From NCBI GenBank assembly GCA_902500125.1, contig GCA_902500125.1_4132.1: a stretch of DNA of 64,000 bases, one strand, 5' to 3'. Position 1 is the first letter of the stretch, and each line of letters opens with the position of its first letter. Of this stretch, positions 42,227 to 51,687 are shown one piece after another. Below the pieces are notes generated by a model. It was not told the origin of the DNA. It saw only the letters and a list, made by a program, of their open reading frames with translations, and ran no database searches. Source of the DNA: Escherichia coli. GTDB lineage: Bacteria > Pseudomonadota > Gammaproteobacteria > Enterobacterales > Enterobacteriaceae. A program made the translations under genes and the position numbers.

Positions 42227-42312
42227 AATCATTAGCTTATTACAGTTCAGCGGTGATCGGTGCATTGATCGCGGCATTGTTAGTAACCTATCTATTCTTT
42301 ATGGTGATTTAA
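42223..42312 (+). CDS. hydrophobic micro-protein (29 aa)
   Basis: ATGA-coupled to previous gene; MKSLAYYSSAVIGALIAALLVTYLFFMVI (one TM). Confidence 0.4.
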   Translation: MKSLAYYSSAVIGALIAALLVTYLFFMVI

Positions 42313-42453
42313 ATGAATCCTAACGGTTTAATTTACAGTACTCCTAAAACGAAAGCAGATAAAGCGAAAGCACGTAAAGCGAAAGTAAAGGAGTACATTA
42401 AGCAAGGCATGACGCGAAAGGCCGCACTACTCAGAGTAAAGGCTGAAAAATAA
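42313..42453 (+). CDS. small basic protein (46 aa)
   Basis: ATG directly after previous TAA; Lys-rich KADKAKARKAKVKEY. Confidence 0.4.
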   Translation: MNPNGLIYSTPKTKADKAKARKAKVKEYIKQGMTRKAALLRVKAEK

Positions 42454-42460
42454 TTGAAAA

Positions 42461-42548
42461 AAGGGTTGACTCCGGTCAGTCCCTTTGCTATTATATATAC
42501 ATACCAGCGATACACTGGCGGCCCATAGGGTGCACAAATGTATCTATT
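42461..42548 (+). promoter_or_regulatory. composite cassette: terminator hairpin carrying -35, plus U element core
   Basis: GGGTTGAC-tccg-GTCAGTCCC; TTGACT 42466, 17 nt, TATTAT 42489; core GCCCATAGGGTGC 42521-42533; TGTATCTATT 42539-42548. Confidence 0.55.
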
Positions 42549-42588
42549 ATATAAGTATTGAGTACTGAAAACTATTTTTAAAAAGTAC

Positions 42589-42648
42589 TTGCAAACTATC
42601 TCAATAAGCGTATAATGTTTTACATCGAAAGGGGAAACGGTTTCCCCT
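42589..42648 (+). promoter_or_regulatory. PeSL-like cassette
   Basis: TTGCAA 42589; TATAAT 42611; hairpin AGGGGAAA-cgg-TTTCCCCT 42630-42648. Confidence 0.7.
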
Positions 42649-42667
42649 GGTAATAAGGAAACAAATC

Positions 42668-43009
42668 ATGACTATCTCAATTGCTCAATCTAACTTTGAA
42701 AATGAAATCATCGCCCAGGCACTGCGTTTAAATGATGGTCGGGCCGAAATTAATTACGGTTTCAATTCAGGCGGTTGTGAAAAATATCAGTACTTTGTAA
42801 CGGCTGATGGCGGTGTCCTGGGTATCAATACAGTTATTGTAAACATCCAAAAAATTAATTTCAATGATCCAGACGATAGCCAGTTTTACATCACGGGCGT
42901 AGACGTGAACTATGAGGATGACTCACTAACTGATGACTACACTGGTGAAACGTTAGAAAGTGCATACTGTGAAGATGATTATCAGTCCGGTCCAGAAGAT
43001 TTCGAATAA
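42668..43009 (+). CDS. hypothetical acidic protein (113 aa)
   Basis: ORF track; TAAGGAAA SD. Confidence 0.65.
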   Translation: MTISIAQSNFENEIIAQALRLNDGRAEINYGFNSGGCEKYQYFVTADGGVLGINTVIVNIQKINFNDPDDSQFYITGVDVNYEDDSLTDDYTGETLESAYCEDDYQSGPEDFE

Positions 43010-43023
43010 TATAAAAAAATAGT

Positions 43024-43083
43024 TTGACAATAGATTATAGTACTGTATAATAGTTTACATCAAGGGGAGAAAAACTTCTCCCC
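43024..43083 (+). promoter_or_regulatory. PeSL-like cassette
   Basis: TTGACA 43024; TATAAT 43046; hairpin 43064-43083. Confidence 0.7.
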
Positions 43084-43105
43084 ACTAACAGAGAGAGAAA
43101 ACAAA

Positions 43106-43318
43106 ATGGCTAATATCTGCACTGTACTGAAAAATGCAAAACAAGTTTTATTTTCTGATCACGATCATTTAAACAAGGATATTACTGGCGTTCGGAATAT
43201 CAAAGATGTAAAAAGTGTTATGGGTATCTATTGCAATATGAAACGTGTTGGAACGTTCGGCGACAAAGTACTATACCAGGCAGGGGATTACAATTTTACA
43301 CTGACTATCATTAACTAA
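43106..43318 (+). CDS. hypothetical protein (70 aa)
   Basis: ORF track; GAGAGAGAAA SD region. Confidence 0.65.
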   Translation: MANICTVLKNAKQVLFSDHDHLNKDITGVRNIKDVKSVMGIYCNMKRVGTFGDKVLYQAGDYNFTLTIIN

Positions 43319-43337
43319 AAATATATTACCAGTACTA

Positions 43338-43365
43338 TTGACATAGTTTGATAGTACTGTATAAT
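43338..43365 (+). promoter_or_regulatory. class-2 promoter
   Basis: AGTACTATTGACA: TTGACA 43338, 16 nt, TATAAT 43360. Confidence 0.65.
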
Positions 43366-43409
43366 AAGTTTTATAAACAGTAGTTAACTTAACCTAAGAG
43401 AGAAATAAA

Positions 43410-43553
43410 ATGATCGCACTGGATTCATTCATCGACGCAGTACTGGCAAAAACTGGCGAGGATCTGACCGCAGAACAATACGCGATGATCGAGCAATGTC
43501 AGCAAGACGGTAAATCGGTGAAAGATACTGTTAAGATTATCCGCAAGATGTAA
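43410..43553 (+). CDS. small protein (47 aa)
   Basis: Not in ORF track; AAGAGAGAAA SD; MIALDSFIDAVLAKTGEDL... Confidence 0.5.
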   Translation: MIALDSFIDAVLAKTGEDLTAEQYAMIEQCQQDGKSVKDTVKIIRKM

Positions 43554-43560
43554 TATTATA

Positions 43561-43587
43561 GCCCACTGGTCAACGCTGGTGGGCTTT
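43561..43587 (+). terminator. terminator hairpin containing Chi
   Basis: GCCCAC...GTGGGC + TTT; 3' arm includes GCTGGTGG 43575-43582. Confidence 0.5.
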
Positions 43588-43658
43588 AATCCTTTACCCT
43601 ATACAATGCCAGTACTAAACCGTTTATCTCGTTAGAATGCGTTACAGGACGTTTGACA

Positions 43659-43856
43659 ATGATTAGCATGAAATCAGTACAAAAACAAATAGAAACATTA
43701 TCAAAAATTAAACGTAAACAGTACTCGTTAGAATATACAATCAATGGTAACTATCATCTAATGAAAGAGAATAATTTTATTGTCATTGATGAATCATTGC
43801 AAATCATTAGTATAGTACTGAAAGCATTAATCAATGACAGAAAAAAATTAAAATAA
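43659..43856 (+). CDS. hypothetical protein (65 aa)
   Basis: ORF-track TTG 43653 trimmed to ATG 43659; AT-richer than neighbours; weak SD. Confidence 0.45.
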   Translation: MISMKSVQKQIETLSKIKRKQYSLEYTINGNYHLMKENNFIVIDESLQIISIVLKALINDRKKLK

Positions 43857-43860
43857 TCTA

Positions 43861-43944
43861 TTGACAATATCATCCAGTACTGGCATAATACTTACATCAA
43901 GACGAGAACGTCACTAACCCATAGGGTGCACAAATGTAACTATA
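43861..43944 (+). promoter_or_regulatory. U element: promoter + conserved transcribed core
   Basis: TTGACA 43861, 17 nt, CATAAT 43884; ACTTACATCAAGACGAGAACGTCACTAACCCATAGGGTGC (core to 43930). Confidence 0.5.
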
Positions 43945-43951
43945 TAATATC

Positions 43952-44022
43952 GATCAATAAATGATCAAAAAAGTACTGGATCAATTTAACATAAGGAGTA
44001 TAATTCTGATCAATTCTTGATC
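43952..44022. repeat. cluster of five GATCAA(A/T) motifs
   Basis: GATC at 43952, 43963, 43979, 44008, 44019, each followed by AA; non-coding. Confidence 0.8.
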
Positions 44023-44084
44023 AAAGGCAATATACGCAGTTGAATTTATATAGACATTACAAAGGCGTTACTATCCGTGGTAAT

Positions 44085-44092
44085 GCTGGTGG
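44085..44092 (+). other. intergenic Chi octamer
   Basis: GCTGGTGG. Confidence 0.8.
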
Positions 44093-44185
44093 ATATGTAG
44101 TATCATATGGTTTGAATAAGATTAGCACTAGTAGTATTATTGTAGCATTACAGTACTATAGTATTTTTATAATGAGGTTAAAATA

Positions 44186-44443
44186 ATGGCAGTAGGATAC
44201 GCGAAAGACGGGGCCGAACAAGACGAGATTCACGCAGTGATTCAGGCCGCCGTTAACCACGCTAGAAAGCAAATTAACGCACAAAGAGAATCACTGGTAC
44301 ATTGCCTCGACTGCGGCGATAAAATCCCTGAGAATCGACGCCAGGCCGTTATAGGGTGCATGTATTGTATTACTTGCCAGGAGGATCATGATAGTACTTT
44401 TAAAAGAGATCCGCGTAATTGTTGGCATAGATCTATGAGATAA
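44186..44443 (+). CDS. TraR/DksA-family C4 zinc-finger protein (85 aa)
   Basis: CLDCGDKIPENRRQAVIGCMYCITCQ = CxxC-x17-CxxC with the IP..RR signature; GAGG SD. Confidence 0.8.
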   Translation: MAVGYAKDGAEQDEIHAVIQAAVNHARKQINAQRESLVHCLDCGDKIPENRRQAVIGCMYCITCQEDHDSTFKRDPRNCWHRSMR

Positions 44444-44450
44444 AAAGTAA

Positions 44451-44478
44451 TTGACAGTACTGAAAGATAGTGTATAAT
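44451..44478 (+). promoter_or_regulatory. sigma70-like promoter
   Basis: TTGACA 44451, 16 nt, TATAAT 44473 + GTTTTATATC. Confidence 0.65.
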
Positions 44479-44507
44479 GTTTTATATCTTAACTGAGGAT
44501 AGTAATC

Positions 44508-44864
44508 ATGGGAATACAACATATCACGCGTACTACTGACAATGGAGAGATCACTGGTTATCAGGTACAGGGCAAAGTAGCACAATTGCAGTACTGGTTT
44601 GTTAAACGTGGAATCATTGCACCGGATCTTGATTATGACCGTGTAGCGTTTATTGATTCTCTTTATGTTGATCCTGATAGTCGGGGCAATGGTGAAGGTA
44701 ACGAATTAATGAATGCCTTTATCGATGCCGCCGATGATTCAGATTGTATCATCTTAGAATGCGATACGGGAGAAGATAACGCCTTTAATCTTAAAGAATG
44801 GTACGAAGGTTTCGGATTCGAGGTATTGATAGATAGTGAATATCCTATCATGATTTTATCATAG
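44508..44864 (+). CDS. GNAT-family N-acetyltransferase (118 aa)
   Basis: LYVDPDSRGNGEGNELMNAF (motif A-like R-x-x-G-x-G) and WYEGFGFE tail; short for a GNAT. Confidence 0.55.
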   Translation: MGIQHITRTTDNGEITGYQVQGKVAQLQYWFVKRGIIAPDLDYDRVAFIDSLYVDPDSRGNGEGNELMNAFIDAADDSDCIILECDTGEDNAFNLKEWYEGFGFEVLIDSEYPIMILS

Positions 44865-44867
44865 TAC

Positions 44868-44924
44868 TTGCATTTAGTTTTCAGTACTGTTATAGTACTT
44901 GCATCAAGGGGAAACATCTTCCCC
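44868..44924 (+). promoter_or_regulatory. PeSL-like cassette, degenerate -10
   Basis: TTGCAT 44868; TTATAG 44890; hairpin GGGGAA-acatc-TTCCCC 44908-44924. Confidence 0.45.
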
Positions 44925-44942
44925 TACTAAGAGGAAATAAAA

Positions 44943-45131
44943 ATGGAAAACTTATCAAGTATTTTAGTACAAGATGATTTCGGTAATCCTGGAAGTGCTA
45001 TCATTGTTCGGGGCAATAAAGCAACGTTTGTTATTGCTGGTGGACCCGTACAGCGTAGCATTAAAAATAATGCTGTTACCATTAATAATGTACGCTATCG
45101 CTTAGATAAAGAATTAATTCATAAACTGTAA
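44943..45131 (+). CDS. hypothetical protein (62 aa)
   Basis: ORF track; AGAGGAAA SD. Confidence 0.6.
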   Translation: MENLSSILVQDDFGNPGSAIIVRGNKATFVIAGGPVQRSIKNNAVTINNVRYRLDKELIHKL

Positions 45132-45139
45132 AAAAGTAC

Positions 45140-45199
45140 TGGATAATAGATTATAGTACTGTATAATAGTTTACATGAAGGGGAGAAATGATTCTCCCC
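45140..45199 (+). promoter_or_regulatory. PeSL-like cassette (degenerate -35)
   Basis: TGGATA 45140; TATAAT 45162; hairpin 45180-45199. Confidence 0.55.
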
Positions 45200-45216
45200 A
45201 CTAAGAGGAAAGAAAA

Positions 45217-45429
45217 ATGCAAGGTCAACTAATCGTTCGTAAATGGTCTGATACTAACGAAAAACCGTGGGATGTACAATACATCGCCCCCAATGGTGAA
45301 TCCAGATATCAACCAGGTGTAACGCATAGTACTGAGCAATTCGCCGCCGCTCATCGCGAACGTCTGTTACAATCAATGCAGCAAGGTTTCGGTGAAAAAT
45401 TCATTCAGGATCATTGGCTGAAAGATTAA
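45217..45429 (+). CDS. hypothetical protein (70 aa)
   Basis: ORF track; AGAGGAAA SD. Confidence 0.65.
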   Translation: MQGQLIVRKWSDTNEKPWDVQYIAPNGESRYQPGVTHSTEQFAAAHRERLLQSMQQGFGEKFIQDHWLKD

Positions 45430-45436
45430 AAAGTAC

Positions 45437-45494
45437 TTGCACTGTACTGAATAAAGTGTATAATGTTTTATATCGGAAGGGGAATAGTTCCCCT
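45437..45494 (+). promoter_or_regulatory. PeSL-like cassette
   Basis: TTGCAC 45437; TATAAT 45459; hairpin AGGGGAA-tag-TTCCCCT 45478-45494. Confidence 0.7.
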
Positions 45495-45515
45495 CCTAAC
45501 AAAGAGGAAAGTATA

Positions 45516-45689
45516 ATGGTCCAGGTAGAATTAACAGTACTGAAAGATCTGTTTTATCGGATTGGTACTACTGGCGAATATCCGAAGGGTGATAATGCAA
45601 AACTTTACGTATCACTCGACTTATGGCAACGCGAACAATTAGCAACGGCCTGGCGTAAAGGCAAAGCAGATAGCGAGGTGAAAGCATGA
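45516..45689 (+). CDS. small protein (57 aa)
   Basis: Trimmed from 45414 to ATG 45516 after AGAGGAAA. Confidence 0.55.
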   Translation: MVQVELTVLKDLFYRIGTTGEYPKGDNAKLYVSLDLWQREQLATAWRKGKADSEVKA

Positions 45690-45835
45690 AAGAATTCTTA
45701 TTTGAAGTAGTGTTTCAAGGTGTCGGTAGTAACCAACTGATTCGCTCAAGTGGTTATAATGTTAACCAGGCATGGAATAACATTAAACAAATGTACCCGA
45801 ACGCTATCACCTATCGCAACCCGAAAGAAGTTTAA
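45686..45835 (+). CDS. small protein (49 aa)
   Basis: Not in ORF track; ATGA-coupled; MKEFLFEVVFQGVGSNQ... Confidence 0.45.
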   Translation: MKEFLFEVVFQGVGSNQLIRSSGYNVNQAWNNIKQMYPNAITYRNPKEV

Positions 45836-45848
45836 AAATAATTGAAAA

Positions 45849-45930
45849 AGGGATTGACTCCGGTCAGTCCCTTTGCTATTATATACGCATAGAAACAAAT
45901 TAGCCCACCGGGTGCATAAATGTATCTATT
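45849..45930 (+). promoter_or_regulatory. composite cassette: terminator hairpin carrying -35, plus U element core
   Basis: AGGGATTGAC-tccg-GTCAGTCCCT; TTGACT 45854, TATTAT 45877; core GCCCACCGGGTGC 45903-45915; TGTATCTATT 45921-45930; Chi 45935-45942 follows. Confidence 0.55.
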
Positions 45931-45982
45931 GTTTGCTGGTGGCTAGTACTATCAAGTACTGAAAACTATTTTTAAAAAGTAC

Positions 45983-46010
45983 TTGCATTGTAATTAGAAT
46001 CAAGTATAAT
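45983..46010 (+). promoter_or_regulatory. early-type promoter (upstream of tandem pair)
   Basis: TTGCAT 45983; TATAAT 46005. Confidence 0.6.
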
Positions 46011-46015
46011 GTTTT

Positions 46016-46090
46016 ACATCAGGACGGGGAACGAAACAAGTAACCCCGTTAAGTAGTCCAGGAGTAAGACATACGAAAAACTCCCCTGAT
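46016..46090 (+). ncRNA. conserved structured leader RNA (copy 2 of 3)
   Basis: Near-identical to 35877-35953; inner stem ACGGGG/CCCCGT. Confidence 0.4.
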
Positions 46091-46098
46091 AAAATAGT

Positions 46099-46126
46099 TT
46101 GACAATAGAAAGTAAACGAGTATAAT
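46099..46126 (+). promoter_or_regulatory. sigma70-like promoter (downstream of tandem pair)
   Basis: TTGACA 46099, 16 nt, TATAAT 46121. Confidence 0.6.
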
Positions 46127-46159
46127 ACTTACATCAACCACTGATAAGGAAACATTAAA

Positions 46160-46435
46160 ATGCGGATTCTACTGACAGCTAACGAAATCGAACAAGTACT
46201 GACTACTAACCTGGAACAATGGAAACGTGATGCAGATATCCAGGCGGTTCAATGGCTTAACGATAAGTTAACGCCGGATGACTTAAGCAAGATTGTAGAT
46301 CCTCAATTCTACGAAGATATTCACGACACGGCTTTAAGCGTCGAGGATGTACTTGATAAGCATTACATTAATACCGATTTACAGGTTTACGGGCGTAAAA
46401 ACTTTATCACTATTCACGACATTTACAATACTTAA
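46160..46435 (+). CDS. hypothetical protein (91 aa)
   Basis: ORF track; AAGGAAA SD. Confidence 0.65.
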   Translation: MRILLTANEIEQVLTTNLEQWKRDADIQAVQWLNDKLTPDDLSKIVDPQFYEDIHDTALSVEDVLDKHYINTDLQVYGRKNFITIHDIYNT

Positions 46436-48855: not shown

Positions 48856-48942
48856 AGGGATTGACTCCGGTCAGTCCCTTTGCTATTATATATCCATTGA
48901 GAGATAACTCACTGACCCATAGGGTGCGGAAGTGTATCTATT
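48856..48942 (+). promoter_or_regulatory. composite cassette: terminator hairpin carrying -35, plus U element core
   Basis: TTGACT 48861, TATTAT 48884; core CCCATAGGGTGC 48916-48927; TGTATCTATT 48933-48942. Confidence 0.55.
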
Positions 48943-51608: not shown

Positions 51609-51687
51609 AGGGATTGACTCCGGTCAGTCCCTTTGCTATTATATACGCATAGACAAAAACTAGCCCACAGGGTGCATAGGTGTATCC
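51609..51687 (+). promoter_or_regulatory. composite cassette: terminator hairpin carrying -35, plus U element core
   Basis: TTGACT 51614, TATTAT 51637; core GCCCACAGGGTGC 51663-51675; TGTATCC 51681; Chi 51722-51729 follows. Confidence 0.55.

Follow-up and report, generated by a model that had tools for sequence, protein, structure and literature searches.

GATC-cored boxes around an internal promoter of Asteriusvirus jumbo coliphages: a candidate operator

Dam-sensitive control elements include the IS10 promoter pIN, the phage P1 cre promoter, phage Mu mom with OxyR, pap with Lrp and agn43 with OxyR, and the pac site of phage P1 consists of TGATCA/G hexamer repeats regulated by Dam. Arrays of short repeats also serve as binding sites for small autoregulated repressors such as Arc/Mnt, CopG and omega (heptad repeats). 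Here we describe a cluster of five GATC-cored boxes in a stretch of phage DNA (the window; 64,000 nucleotides of contig GCA_902500125.1_4132.1), where it surrounds a predicted internal promoter, P_int, ahead of a 48-codon gene and a DksA/TraR-type gene. We tentatively read the cluster as a cis-regulatory operator for a sequence-specific DNA-binding protein that would set promoter output, and we weigh this reading, which comes from sequence comparison, against its rivals. The element appears to be a cis-regulatory module not described before, though familiar in its general type; no mention of it was found in the literature searched, and it is not a surprise of principle.

Each of the described systems resembles the locus in part. 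At IS10 pIN, P1 cre, Mu mom, pap and agn43, GATC likewise lies at a -35, a -10 or a regulator's site, where methylation and protein binding can compete, but those systems carry one to three GATC within the site of a known host protein, whereas five GATC form the cores of a 7-8-bp box here, in strict 11-bp pairing. Arc/Mnt, CopG and omega share with the locus a protein of about 50 residues encoded just downstream of repeated boxes that overlap its own promoter with about one-turn spacing; the protein at the locus, however, is predicted to have four strands and a helix (AP2-like) rather than a ribbon-helix-helix, and two clades with homologs are box-free. P1 pac also clusters several TGATCA-type hexamers in some 70-160 bp, whereas the locus lies neither at a genome end nor beside terminase genes, and is missing from viable relatives. 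SeqA targets such as oriC and the dnaA promoter have clustered GATC with neighbors about one turn apart on one face (PMC2691817), as the locus does; unlike them, it is unlikely to be an origin, is dispensable, has conserved GATC flanks and belongs to an accessory phage promoter. The promoter-early stem-loop (PeSL) cassettes of T4-type phages (PMC2839356, PMC4122927) are comparable in being small early genes with their own conserved sigma-70 promoter, and further likenesses are the composite hairpin/promoter motifs of neighboring genes and the presence or absence of promoter-plus-open reading frame (ORF) modules between close relatives. The differences are that the indel at the locus is bounded by 10-bp microhomology at ORF ends, not by a promoter-hairpin motif, and that the phage is Rak2-like, not T4-type.

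Five boxes around an internal promoter

Matches to 43400-44900 came from 42 phage records (80-99% identity), each a jumbo myovirus of 310-386 kb and of the 121Q/PBECO4 type, and by these matches the window is Asteriusvirus DNA, from a 121Q/PBECO4-like, Rak2-like jumbo coliphage. The matching records name E. coli and Salmonella as hosts. A close relative with a complete genome, TH47 (MT446416.1; 352,450 bp), served for genome-wide counts, and conservation was judged in an alignment of eight Asteriusvirus sequences, including 121Q, vB_Ec-M-J, Turkey3 and the PBECO4 group.

A recount recovered all five GATC positions of the original prediction (43952, 43963, 43979, 44008 and 44019), each reading GATCAA followed by A or T. 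The sites lie within 71 bp (43952-44022) and account for five of the 13 plus-strand GATCAA copies in the window, where elsewhere no segment of about 70 bp holds more than three GATC. When the window's 138 GATC were placed at random, at least five fell within 70 bp in 0.2% of trials, and for the hexamer GATCAA, counting every possible start, a Poisson estimate comes to about 3e-8. The expectation of about 0.3 sites given earlier presumes uniform base composition; the window mean (2.16 GATC/kb) gives 0.15 per 70 bp, and the excess itself stands. The genome-wide count had been named beforehand as the decisive comparison, and on it the density at the locus is well above average and GATC is otherwise depleted: TH47 has 1.65 GATC/kb, about 2-fold under-represented (581 observed vs 1132-1243 expected), and the sole site with at least four GATC in 75 bp, over the 352 kb scanned, is the homologous locus.

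The conserved unit, tTGATCAAw, is longer than GATC, and GATCAA is kept in 33 of 41 sites in two phage clades. A Dam/SeqA cluster would be expected to leave the GATC flanks free, but the T and AA flanks are conserved, which points to a sequence-specific protein. Two pairs, GATCAATAAATGATCAA and GATCAATTCTTGATCAA, and one single box make up the cluster (Table 1); the 11-bp spacing within pairs would put both boxes on one helix face, three of the boxes read TGATCA, and the second box of pair 2 is a full palindrome, TTGATCAA. With P_int predicted to start near 44011, the boxes lie at -59, -48, -32, -3 and +9. The repeated boxes thus flank and overlap the core promoter of the adjacent small gene, the arrangement looked for in an operator-promoter-repressor module.

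Both GATC positions of pair 1 are invariant in all eight Asteriusvirus sequences, and the -10 hexamer TATAAT, between the pairs, is invariant in all relatives aligned. Members of the 121Q/fEgEco12 group have pair 2. In the PBECO4 group the three upstream boxes are retained and a fourth GATC has arisen among them; the single box there is TTGATC, which doubles as the -35 hexamer of the predicted P_int homolog (TTGATC-16-TATAAT, 10/12), and the homolog in phage Hallingskeid is TTGACT-17-AATAAT (10/12).

The boxes are unique in the TH47 genome apart from one lone pair, TTGATCAAAAATTGATC, which lies between genes at reverse-complement ~326030, with a hairpin before it and a 174-aa ORF downstream, and which may be a second target of the box binder. 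An IMG/VR scan for GATCAANAAATGATCAA gave 90 matches, about chance level by our own estimate, with 121Q the sole related record. A pair-gap-pair scan of IMG/VR gave 37, mostly in collagen-like (G-S-K-G-D-Q-G) coding or other repeats and again with only 121Q related; one array from it (L126) sits inside an ORF. The literature searched for TTGATCAA and for Asteriusvirus promoters held nothing relevant. Two further candidates were set aside: AAGGAG at 43994, as the ribosome-binding site of a mini-ORF, is not conserved (AAGGCG/AAAGTAG in relatives) and only in-frame stop codons follow it, and minus-strand promoter-like matches with TTGATC as -35 were judged a by-product of the likeness of TTGATC to TTGACA.

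The adjacent small gene and its co-inheritance with the boxes

What had been taken for a 240-bp gap holds a conserved 48-codon ORF at 44040-44186, annotated in several GenBank records (121Q, PBECO4 and fEgEco12); only 43857-44039 is truly non-coding. A PHROG family match (Table 1) and a ratio of nonsynonymous to synonymous substitution (dN/dS) of 0.30 mark the ORF as a real gene, and its frame is kept in the diverged PBECO4 group, where intergenic region and ORF are together 79% identical to the window. For annotation, the "gap" is accordingly best read as a gene plus its control region and not as an origin. The stop codon overlaps the ATG of the DksA-like gene (TAATG), which is probably co-transcribed with the small gene upstream. 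The last ~55 nt of the small gene (44130-44186) are nearly invariant among Asteriusvirus groups, including almost all synonymous positions: two columns vary, in one or three sequences, and divergence is far greater over the remainder of the gene. Such constancy suggests an overlapping translation signal for the DksA-like gene, or recent homogenization.

The 48-aa query alone found one protein cluster, and 15 homologous clusters were reached with a six-sequence profile; the named ones are from Rak2-like jumbo phages. Homologs occur in jumbo phages of Erwinia, Pectobacterium and Klebsiella and on metagenomic contigs. In a metagenome scan with the Erwinia-clade protein, all seven matches fell in unrelated long ORFs that share KRDGDSYV and look acyl-CoA dehydrogenase-like by eye. 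The window protein has six K+R and no D+E. An AlphaFold2 model built on a 16-sequence alignment (mean predicted local distance difference test score, pLDDT, of 90) has four beta-strands followed by one helix, an AP2-like predicted fold for which the AP2/ERF and ApiAP2 DNA-binding domains (PDB 6sy0, 7et4) are the comparison, the likeness being at the level of the fold only. Binding of nucleic acid by the small protein is plausible.

A second clade, of Erwinia phages, comprises phage Hallingskeid and six further distinct metagenomic sequences, each encoding a homolog of the small protein. The small proteins of the two clades are ~23-38% identical, and those of the Erwinia clade share 28-33% with the window protein in the alignment and 36-38% in BLAST local matches. 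All members have the same order: leader element, TTGATCAAnaaaTGATCAA, TTGACW-17 nt-AATAAT with TGATCAATAATTGATC, the second pair, on either side of the -10, then ribosome-binding site and gene. Their boxes lie at -59, -48, -16 and -5, and the upstream pair stands at exactly -59/-48 in both clades. Just 56 bp (the leader core and pair 1) still align between them, yet promoter-relative positions are identical. In the Erwinia clade the 17-nt spacer tolerates sequence changes but the boxes and both promoter hexamers (-35 and -10) do not, a pattern characteristic of a promoter with operators.

Promoter, leader, boxes and small gene form a 330-bp unit between two copies of a 10-bp direct repeat, TTAAAATAAT. 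Phage ph0011 lacks this unit, as seen directly (L009:1940-1965): it has a single copy of TTAAAATAAT, and the upstream ORF abuts the DksA-like gene. UE-S1 and phAPEC6, judged by BLAST pattern, also lack the segment, and all three are isolated phages. Since the module is missing from natural isolates it is dispensable, which argues against an origin or pac site, and its exact loss between the repeats shows how single small genes come and go in these phages.

Phages of the ph0011 type retain the DksA-like gene without the boxes, and in the Erwinia clade boxes and small gene co-occur ahead of a different downstream gene; the gene that follows varies by clade and is DksA-like in Asteriusvirus only. 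Because the unit is lost as a whole and the downstream gene differs in the Erwinia clade, the boxes appear to belong to the small gene and not to DksA. The earlier description of the neighbor as DksA/TraR-type agrees with its PF01258 match; the link it drew from the boxes to that gene is not supported, as they accompany the 48-codon gene. Box and gene are kept together in Asteriusvirus and the Erwinia clade and are lost together in ph0011-type phages; the CBB and RaK2 homologs are box-free.

Operator, methylation switch and other explanations

The operator reading draws on a cluster beyond chance and unique in a 352-kb genome, on an architecture common to two clades, on boxes longer than GATC and on their co-inheritance with the small gene. 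Under this proposal the five tTGATCAAw boxes (7-8 bp), as two 11-bp-spaced pairs and one single box, would form the operator and bracket P_int, with pair 1 upstream, the single box overlapping the -35 region and pair 2 around the start. P_int would act behind the strong early promoter P1 and ahead of a small gene translationally coupled to the DksA-like gene. A sequence-specific protein would occupy the boxes cooperatively and set P_int output, and the best candidate for it is the adjacent gene's own protein, small, basic and AP2-like in predicted fold, which would exert negative feedback on its own promoter. Since each box is built on GATC, occupancy of the boxes would probably vary with Dam methylation of the phage DNA, and methylation by host Dam or by a phage PF05869-family enzyme could modulate binding. 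A more specific version, in which a 48-residue AP2-fold protein is a minimal transcription factor with operators built from GATC, and in which the Dam state (freshly injected, replicated, hemimethylated) gates binding, is a long shot; if true, an early operon with a DksA-like factor of the RNA-polymerase secondary channel among its products would have a timer coupled to replication.

Several results weigh against the operator and its proposed binder. The -35 of P_int is poor in the window (3/6), which is why the promoter scan did not list it, and the PBECO4 group has lost pair 2. Homologs of the CBB-like and RaK2-like types have ordinary early promoters without GATCAA boxes upstream, and the RaK2-type protein is acidic (4 K+R, 12 D+E). 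A Pfam search with three family members, at E up to 10, gave no match, AP2/ERF (PF00847) included; there was no PDB sequence match, no profile places the small protein in a DNA-binding family, and Foldseek against the PDB gave nothing significant. The fold also matches proteins that do not bind DNA (a phage capsid protein, MmoD and PH-like domains), and in BFVD it is common among uncharacterized small phage proteins.

Almost nothing is known about the timing of the hundreds of tiny early genes in the terminal repeats of Rak2-like jumbo phages. The locus offers a compact candidate switch of ~330 bp, with boxes, two predicted promoters, a regulator candidate of 48 residues from an uncharacterized family and a passenger gene of the RNA-polymerase-binding, DksA-like kind, and its presence/absence variants are natural controls. 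Should the boxes prove methylation-sensitive, epigenetic control in lytic phages would gain a new example; should the small protein bind them, a function would follow for PHROG 38664 and for a widespread small phage fold.

A switch run by Dam and SeqA alone is a rival to be taken seriously, although we think it on the whole unlikely. GATC methylation at -35, -10 and +1, with SeqA on hemimethylated 11-bp pairs, would turn P_int on and off without any phage DNA-binding protein. GATC is indeed the most invariant core of the boxes, lost among the relatives examined at one position in one lineage (L108/L109), and a sequence that is 2-fold depleted genome-wide is concentrated here alone. SeqA prefers GATC pairs on one helix face, and pairs about one helical turn apart suit that preference (PMC2691817). 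TH47 encodes a 174-aa adenine methyltransferase of the PF05869 'Dam' family (E = 3.5e-33, reverse-complement coordinate ~303731), and N6-adenine methyltransferases have been reported in Asteriusvirus papers; a tblastn search found no MethyltransfD12-type Dam. The E. coli host has Dam, and the hosts E. coli, Salmonella and Erwinia are Dam+ enterobacteria. Such a switch does not account for the conservation of the flanking T and AA, which neither Dam nor SeqA is known to need. Moreover, in two clades the boxes accompany one specific small gene, and the CBB and RaK2 clades, on other Dam+ hosts, have the homologous gene without a GATC cluster. The original prediction had proposed a Dam- or SeqA-controlled origin or promoter: the promoter location, the non-randomness and the conservation are borne out, but the origin is not, as the segment is missing from relatives and has no DnaA box.

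An RNA element is less probable still. In the transcript from promoter P1, pair 1 would pair with pair 2 (GAUCAA/UUGAUC) in an imperfect hairpin of ~20 bp in the 5' untranslated region, as an RNase III site or for translational control, or the GAUCAA repeats would bind an RNA-binding protein. Folding predicts the hairpin at z = -5.1 in contig L107, whose two arms match over 17 nt without a mismatch, and a consensus hairpin is predicted for the Erwinia-phage clade; in the window, however, z = -2.7 is a modest gain over shuffled sequence. There is a strand bias as well (GATCAA on the sense strand at 33 of 41 sites, TTGATC at 24 of 41), and AP2-fold proteins can bind RNA too, as the Toxoplasma mitoribosome matches illustrate. 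Nevertheless, none of 21 predicted pairs has compensatory changes and one is broken uncompensated, the PBECO4 group has arm 1 without arm 2, and the would-be loop contains a conserved sigma-70 promoter with a fixed 17-nt spacer.

We think it very improbable that iterons with GATC make up a replication origin or a pac-like site here, on the pattern of oriC or of phage P1 pac with its TGATCA repeats. The repeated boxes, three of them reading TGATCA, and their position inside the direct terminal repeat would fit it, as would a TTGATCAAAAAATGATCAR array among terminase-like ORFs, read by eye, in an unrelated GC-rich viral contig (L030/L096). Yet the whole segment is missing in ph0011 (directly) and in UE-S1 and phAPEC6 (BLAST pattern), it lies ~11-12 kb from the repeat ends and not at a terminus, and it sits in a transcription unit between a promoter and its gene; the cluster has no DnaA box, and the cumulative GC skew of TH47 is monotonic, without a turning point. 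The TTGATCAAAAAATGATCAR array itself comprises five tandem copies (L030:2837-2911 and L096:1394-1448, both GC-rich IMG/VR contigs) near ORFs that by eye are small-terminase-like, HNH-motif and intein-containing large-terminase-like, and the same 7-mer may there make up a recognition site of the cos/pac type.

That the cluster has no function and arose when an AT-rich 19-bp unit with a chance GATC was duplicated locally is equally hard to credit: the two pairs are alike (GATCAAtnnntGATCAAa), so duplication is part of their history, but the boxes stay conserved while their flanks diverge (~79% identity within Asteriusvirus), and the Erwinia clade, alignable over 56 bp only, has identical promoter-relative positions.

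Genome position, leader element and sequence composition

In records with annotated or start-aligned physical ends the locus lies ~11-12 kb from the left end, and in vB_Ec-M-J it falls within an annotated direct terminal repeat of 21,525 bp; the repeat of fEgEco12 is 20,993 bp (PMC13070987). The surroundings consist of very small genes on one strand, most with their own sigma-70-type promoter, in agreement with the RpoD-type early promoters described in the related phage CBB (PMC5259590). Table 1 gives the features of the locus.

Table 1. Coordinates of features at the locus and of related motifs elsewhere in the window
Feature	Position	Strand	Details
Direct repeat TTAAAATAAT, left copy (10 bp)	43848..43857	+	bounds 330-bp module
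P1, predicted early sigma-70 promoter	43861..43889	+	TTGACA-17 nt-CATAAT, extended -10 TG; 11/12 matches in consensus scan
5' leader element	43895..43945	+	CAT; hairpin GACG-AGAA-CGTC (43901-43912); CCCATAGGGTGC (43918-43929); then ACAAATGTAACTAT
Box pair 1, GATCAATAAATGATCAA	43952..43968	+	GATC starts 11 bp apart, -59 and -48 of predicted P_int start
P_int, predicted sigma-70-type promoter	43976..44004	+	weak -35 CTGGAT (43976-43981), 17 nt, consensus -10 TATAAT (43999-44004)
Single box GATCAA	43979..43984	+	overlaps P_int -35 region; invariant in Asteriusvirus alignment
Box pair 2, GATCAATTCTTGATCAA	44008..44024	+	GATC starts 11 bp apart, -3 and +9 of P_int
48-codon gene	44040..44186	+	TTG start, basic product; PHROG 38664, E = 1.8e-31
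Chi octamer GCTGGTGG	44085..44092	+	inside small gene, codons N-A-G-G
Direct repeat TTAAAATAAT, right copy (10 bp)	44178..44187	+	bounds 330-bp module
DksA/TraR C4 zinc-finger gene, 85 aa	44186..44443	+	Pfam PF01258, E = 3.7e-9; PHROG 54
Leader-element copies	33524(-), 35679, 35747(-), 37669(-), 42522, 43918, 45904, 48916, 51664; also L008:2505		directly downstream of early promoters
Composite terminator/promoter motifs	~42463-42494, 45851-45882, 48858-48889, 51611-51642		hairpin stem carries -35 TTGACT; TATTAT 17 nt on
GCTGGTGG copies	1363, 11380, 32988, 39553, 43575, 44085, 45036, 45935, 48022, 49921, 51500, 51722	+
GCTGGTGG copies	24700, 24958, 32976, 39491	-

The hexamers of P1 are invariant across the eight relatives, and transcription is predicted to start near 43896. 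The leader that would follow (43895-43945) is invariant in the eight Asteriusvirus sequences but for one substitution in Turkey3, and its core, CCCAYNGGGTGC, has nine copies in the window, among which the small hairpin varies in sequence and keeps its complementarity. The order within copies is CAT, an optional small hairpin, the invariant CCCAYNGGGTGC and then RNARNTGTAWCTA, and it is common to an Erwinia phage. An Rfam covariance-model scan of 42300-46300, at E up to 5, gave no relevant match, and the element may be an undescribed 5' leader RNA motif or DNA site. The composite terminator/promoter motifs of the window resemble the PeSL cassettes of T4-type phages (PMC4122927); their hairpin is GGGTTGACTCCGGTCAGTCCC at 42463 and GGGATTGACTCCGGTCAGTCCC in the remaining three copies.

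The Chi octamer that the original prediction joined to the cluster is present; it is not conserved in 121Q, vB_Ec-M-J, Turkey3 or the PBECO4 group, and because it is absent in most relatives we exclude it from the element. Chi is nonetheless frequent throughout: the window has 16 copies against 0.63 expected, with a 12:4 strand bias and ten plus-strand copies in the region corresponding to the direct terminal repeat, and TH47 has 17 and six on its two strands against ~1 expected on each. The enrichment may shield the ends of the linear genome against RecBCD.

The composition of TH47 also indicates strong restriction-site avoidance, with CGATCG, CAGCTG, AGGCCT and AGCGCT each at zero against ~35 expected, several GC-only palindromes likewise absent, and GATC at half its expected frequency. 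The palindrome AGTACT, often within CAGTACTG, is by far the most enriched 6-bp palindrome there (917 vs 119 expected, 7.7-fold); the literature searched on AGTACT in jumbo phages held nothing relevant. It occurs 278 times in the 64 kb of the window (e.g., at 43611, 43720, 43814, 43876, 43972, 44152, 44393, 44456 and 44590), at 2.4/kb inside long ORFs and 3.0/kb outside, and is densest in the terminal repeat. Loci of the CBB, RaK2 and Hallingskeid-like types are enriched in AGTACT as well, and unrelated viral contigs are not.

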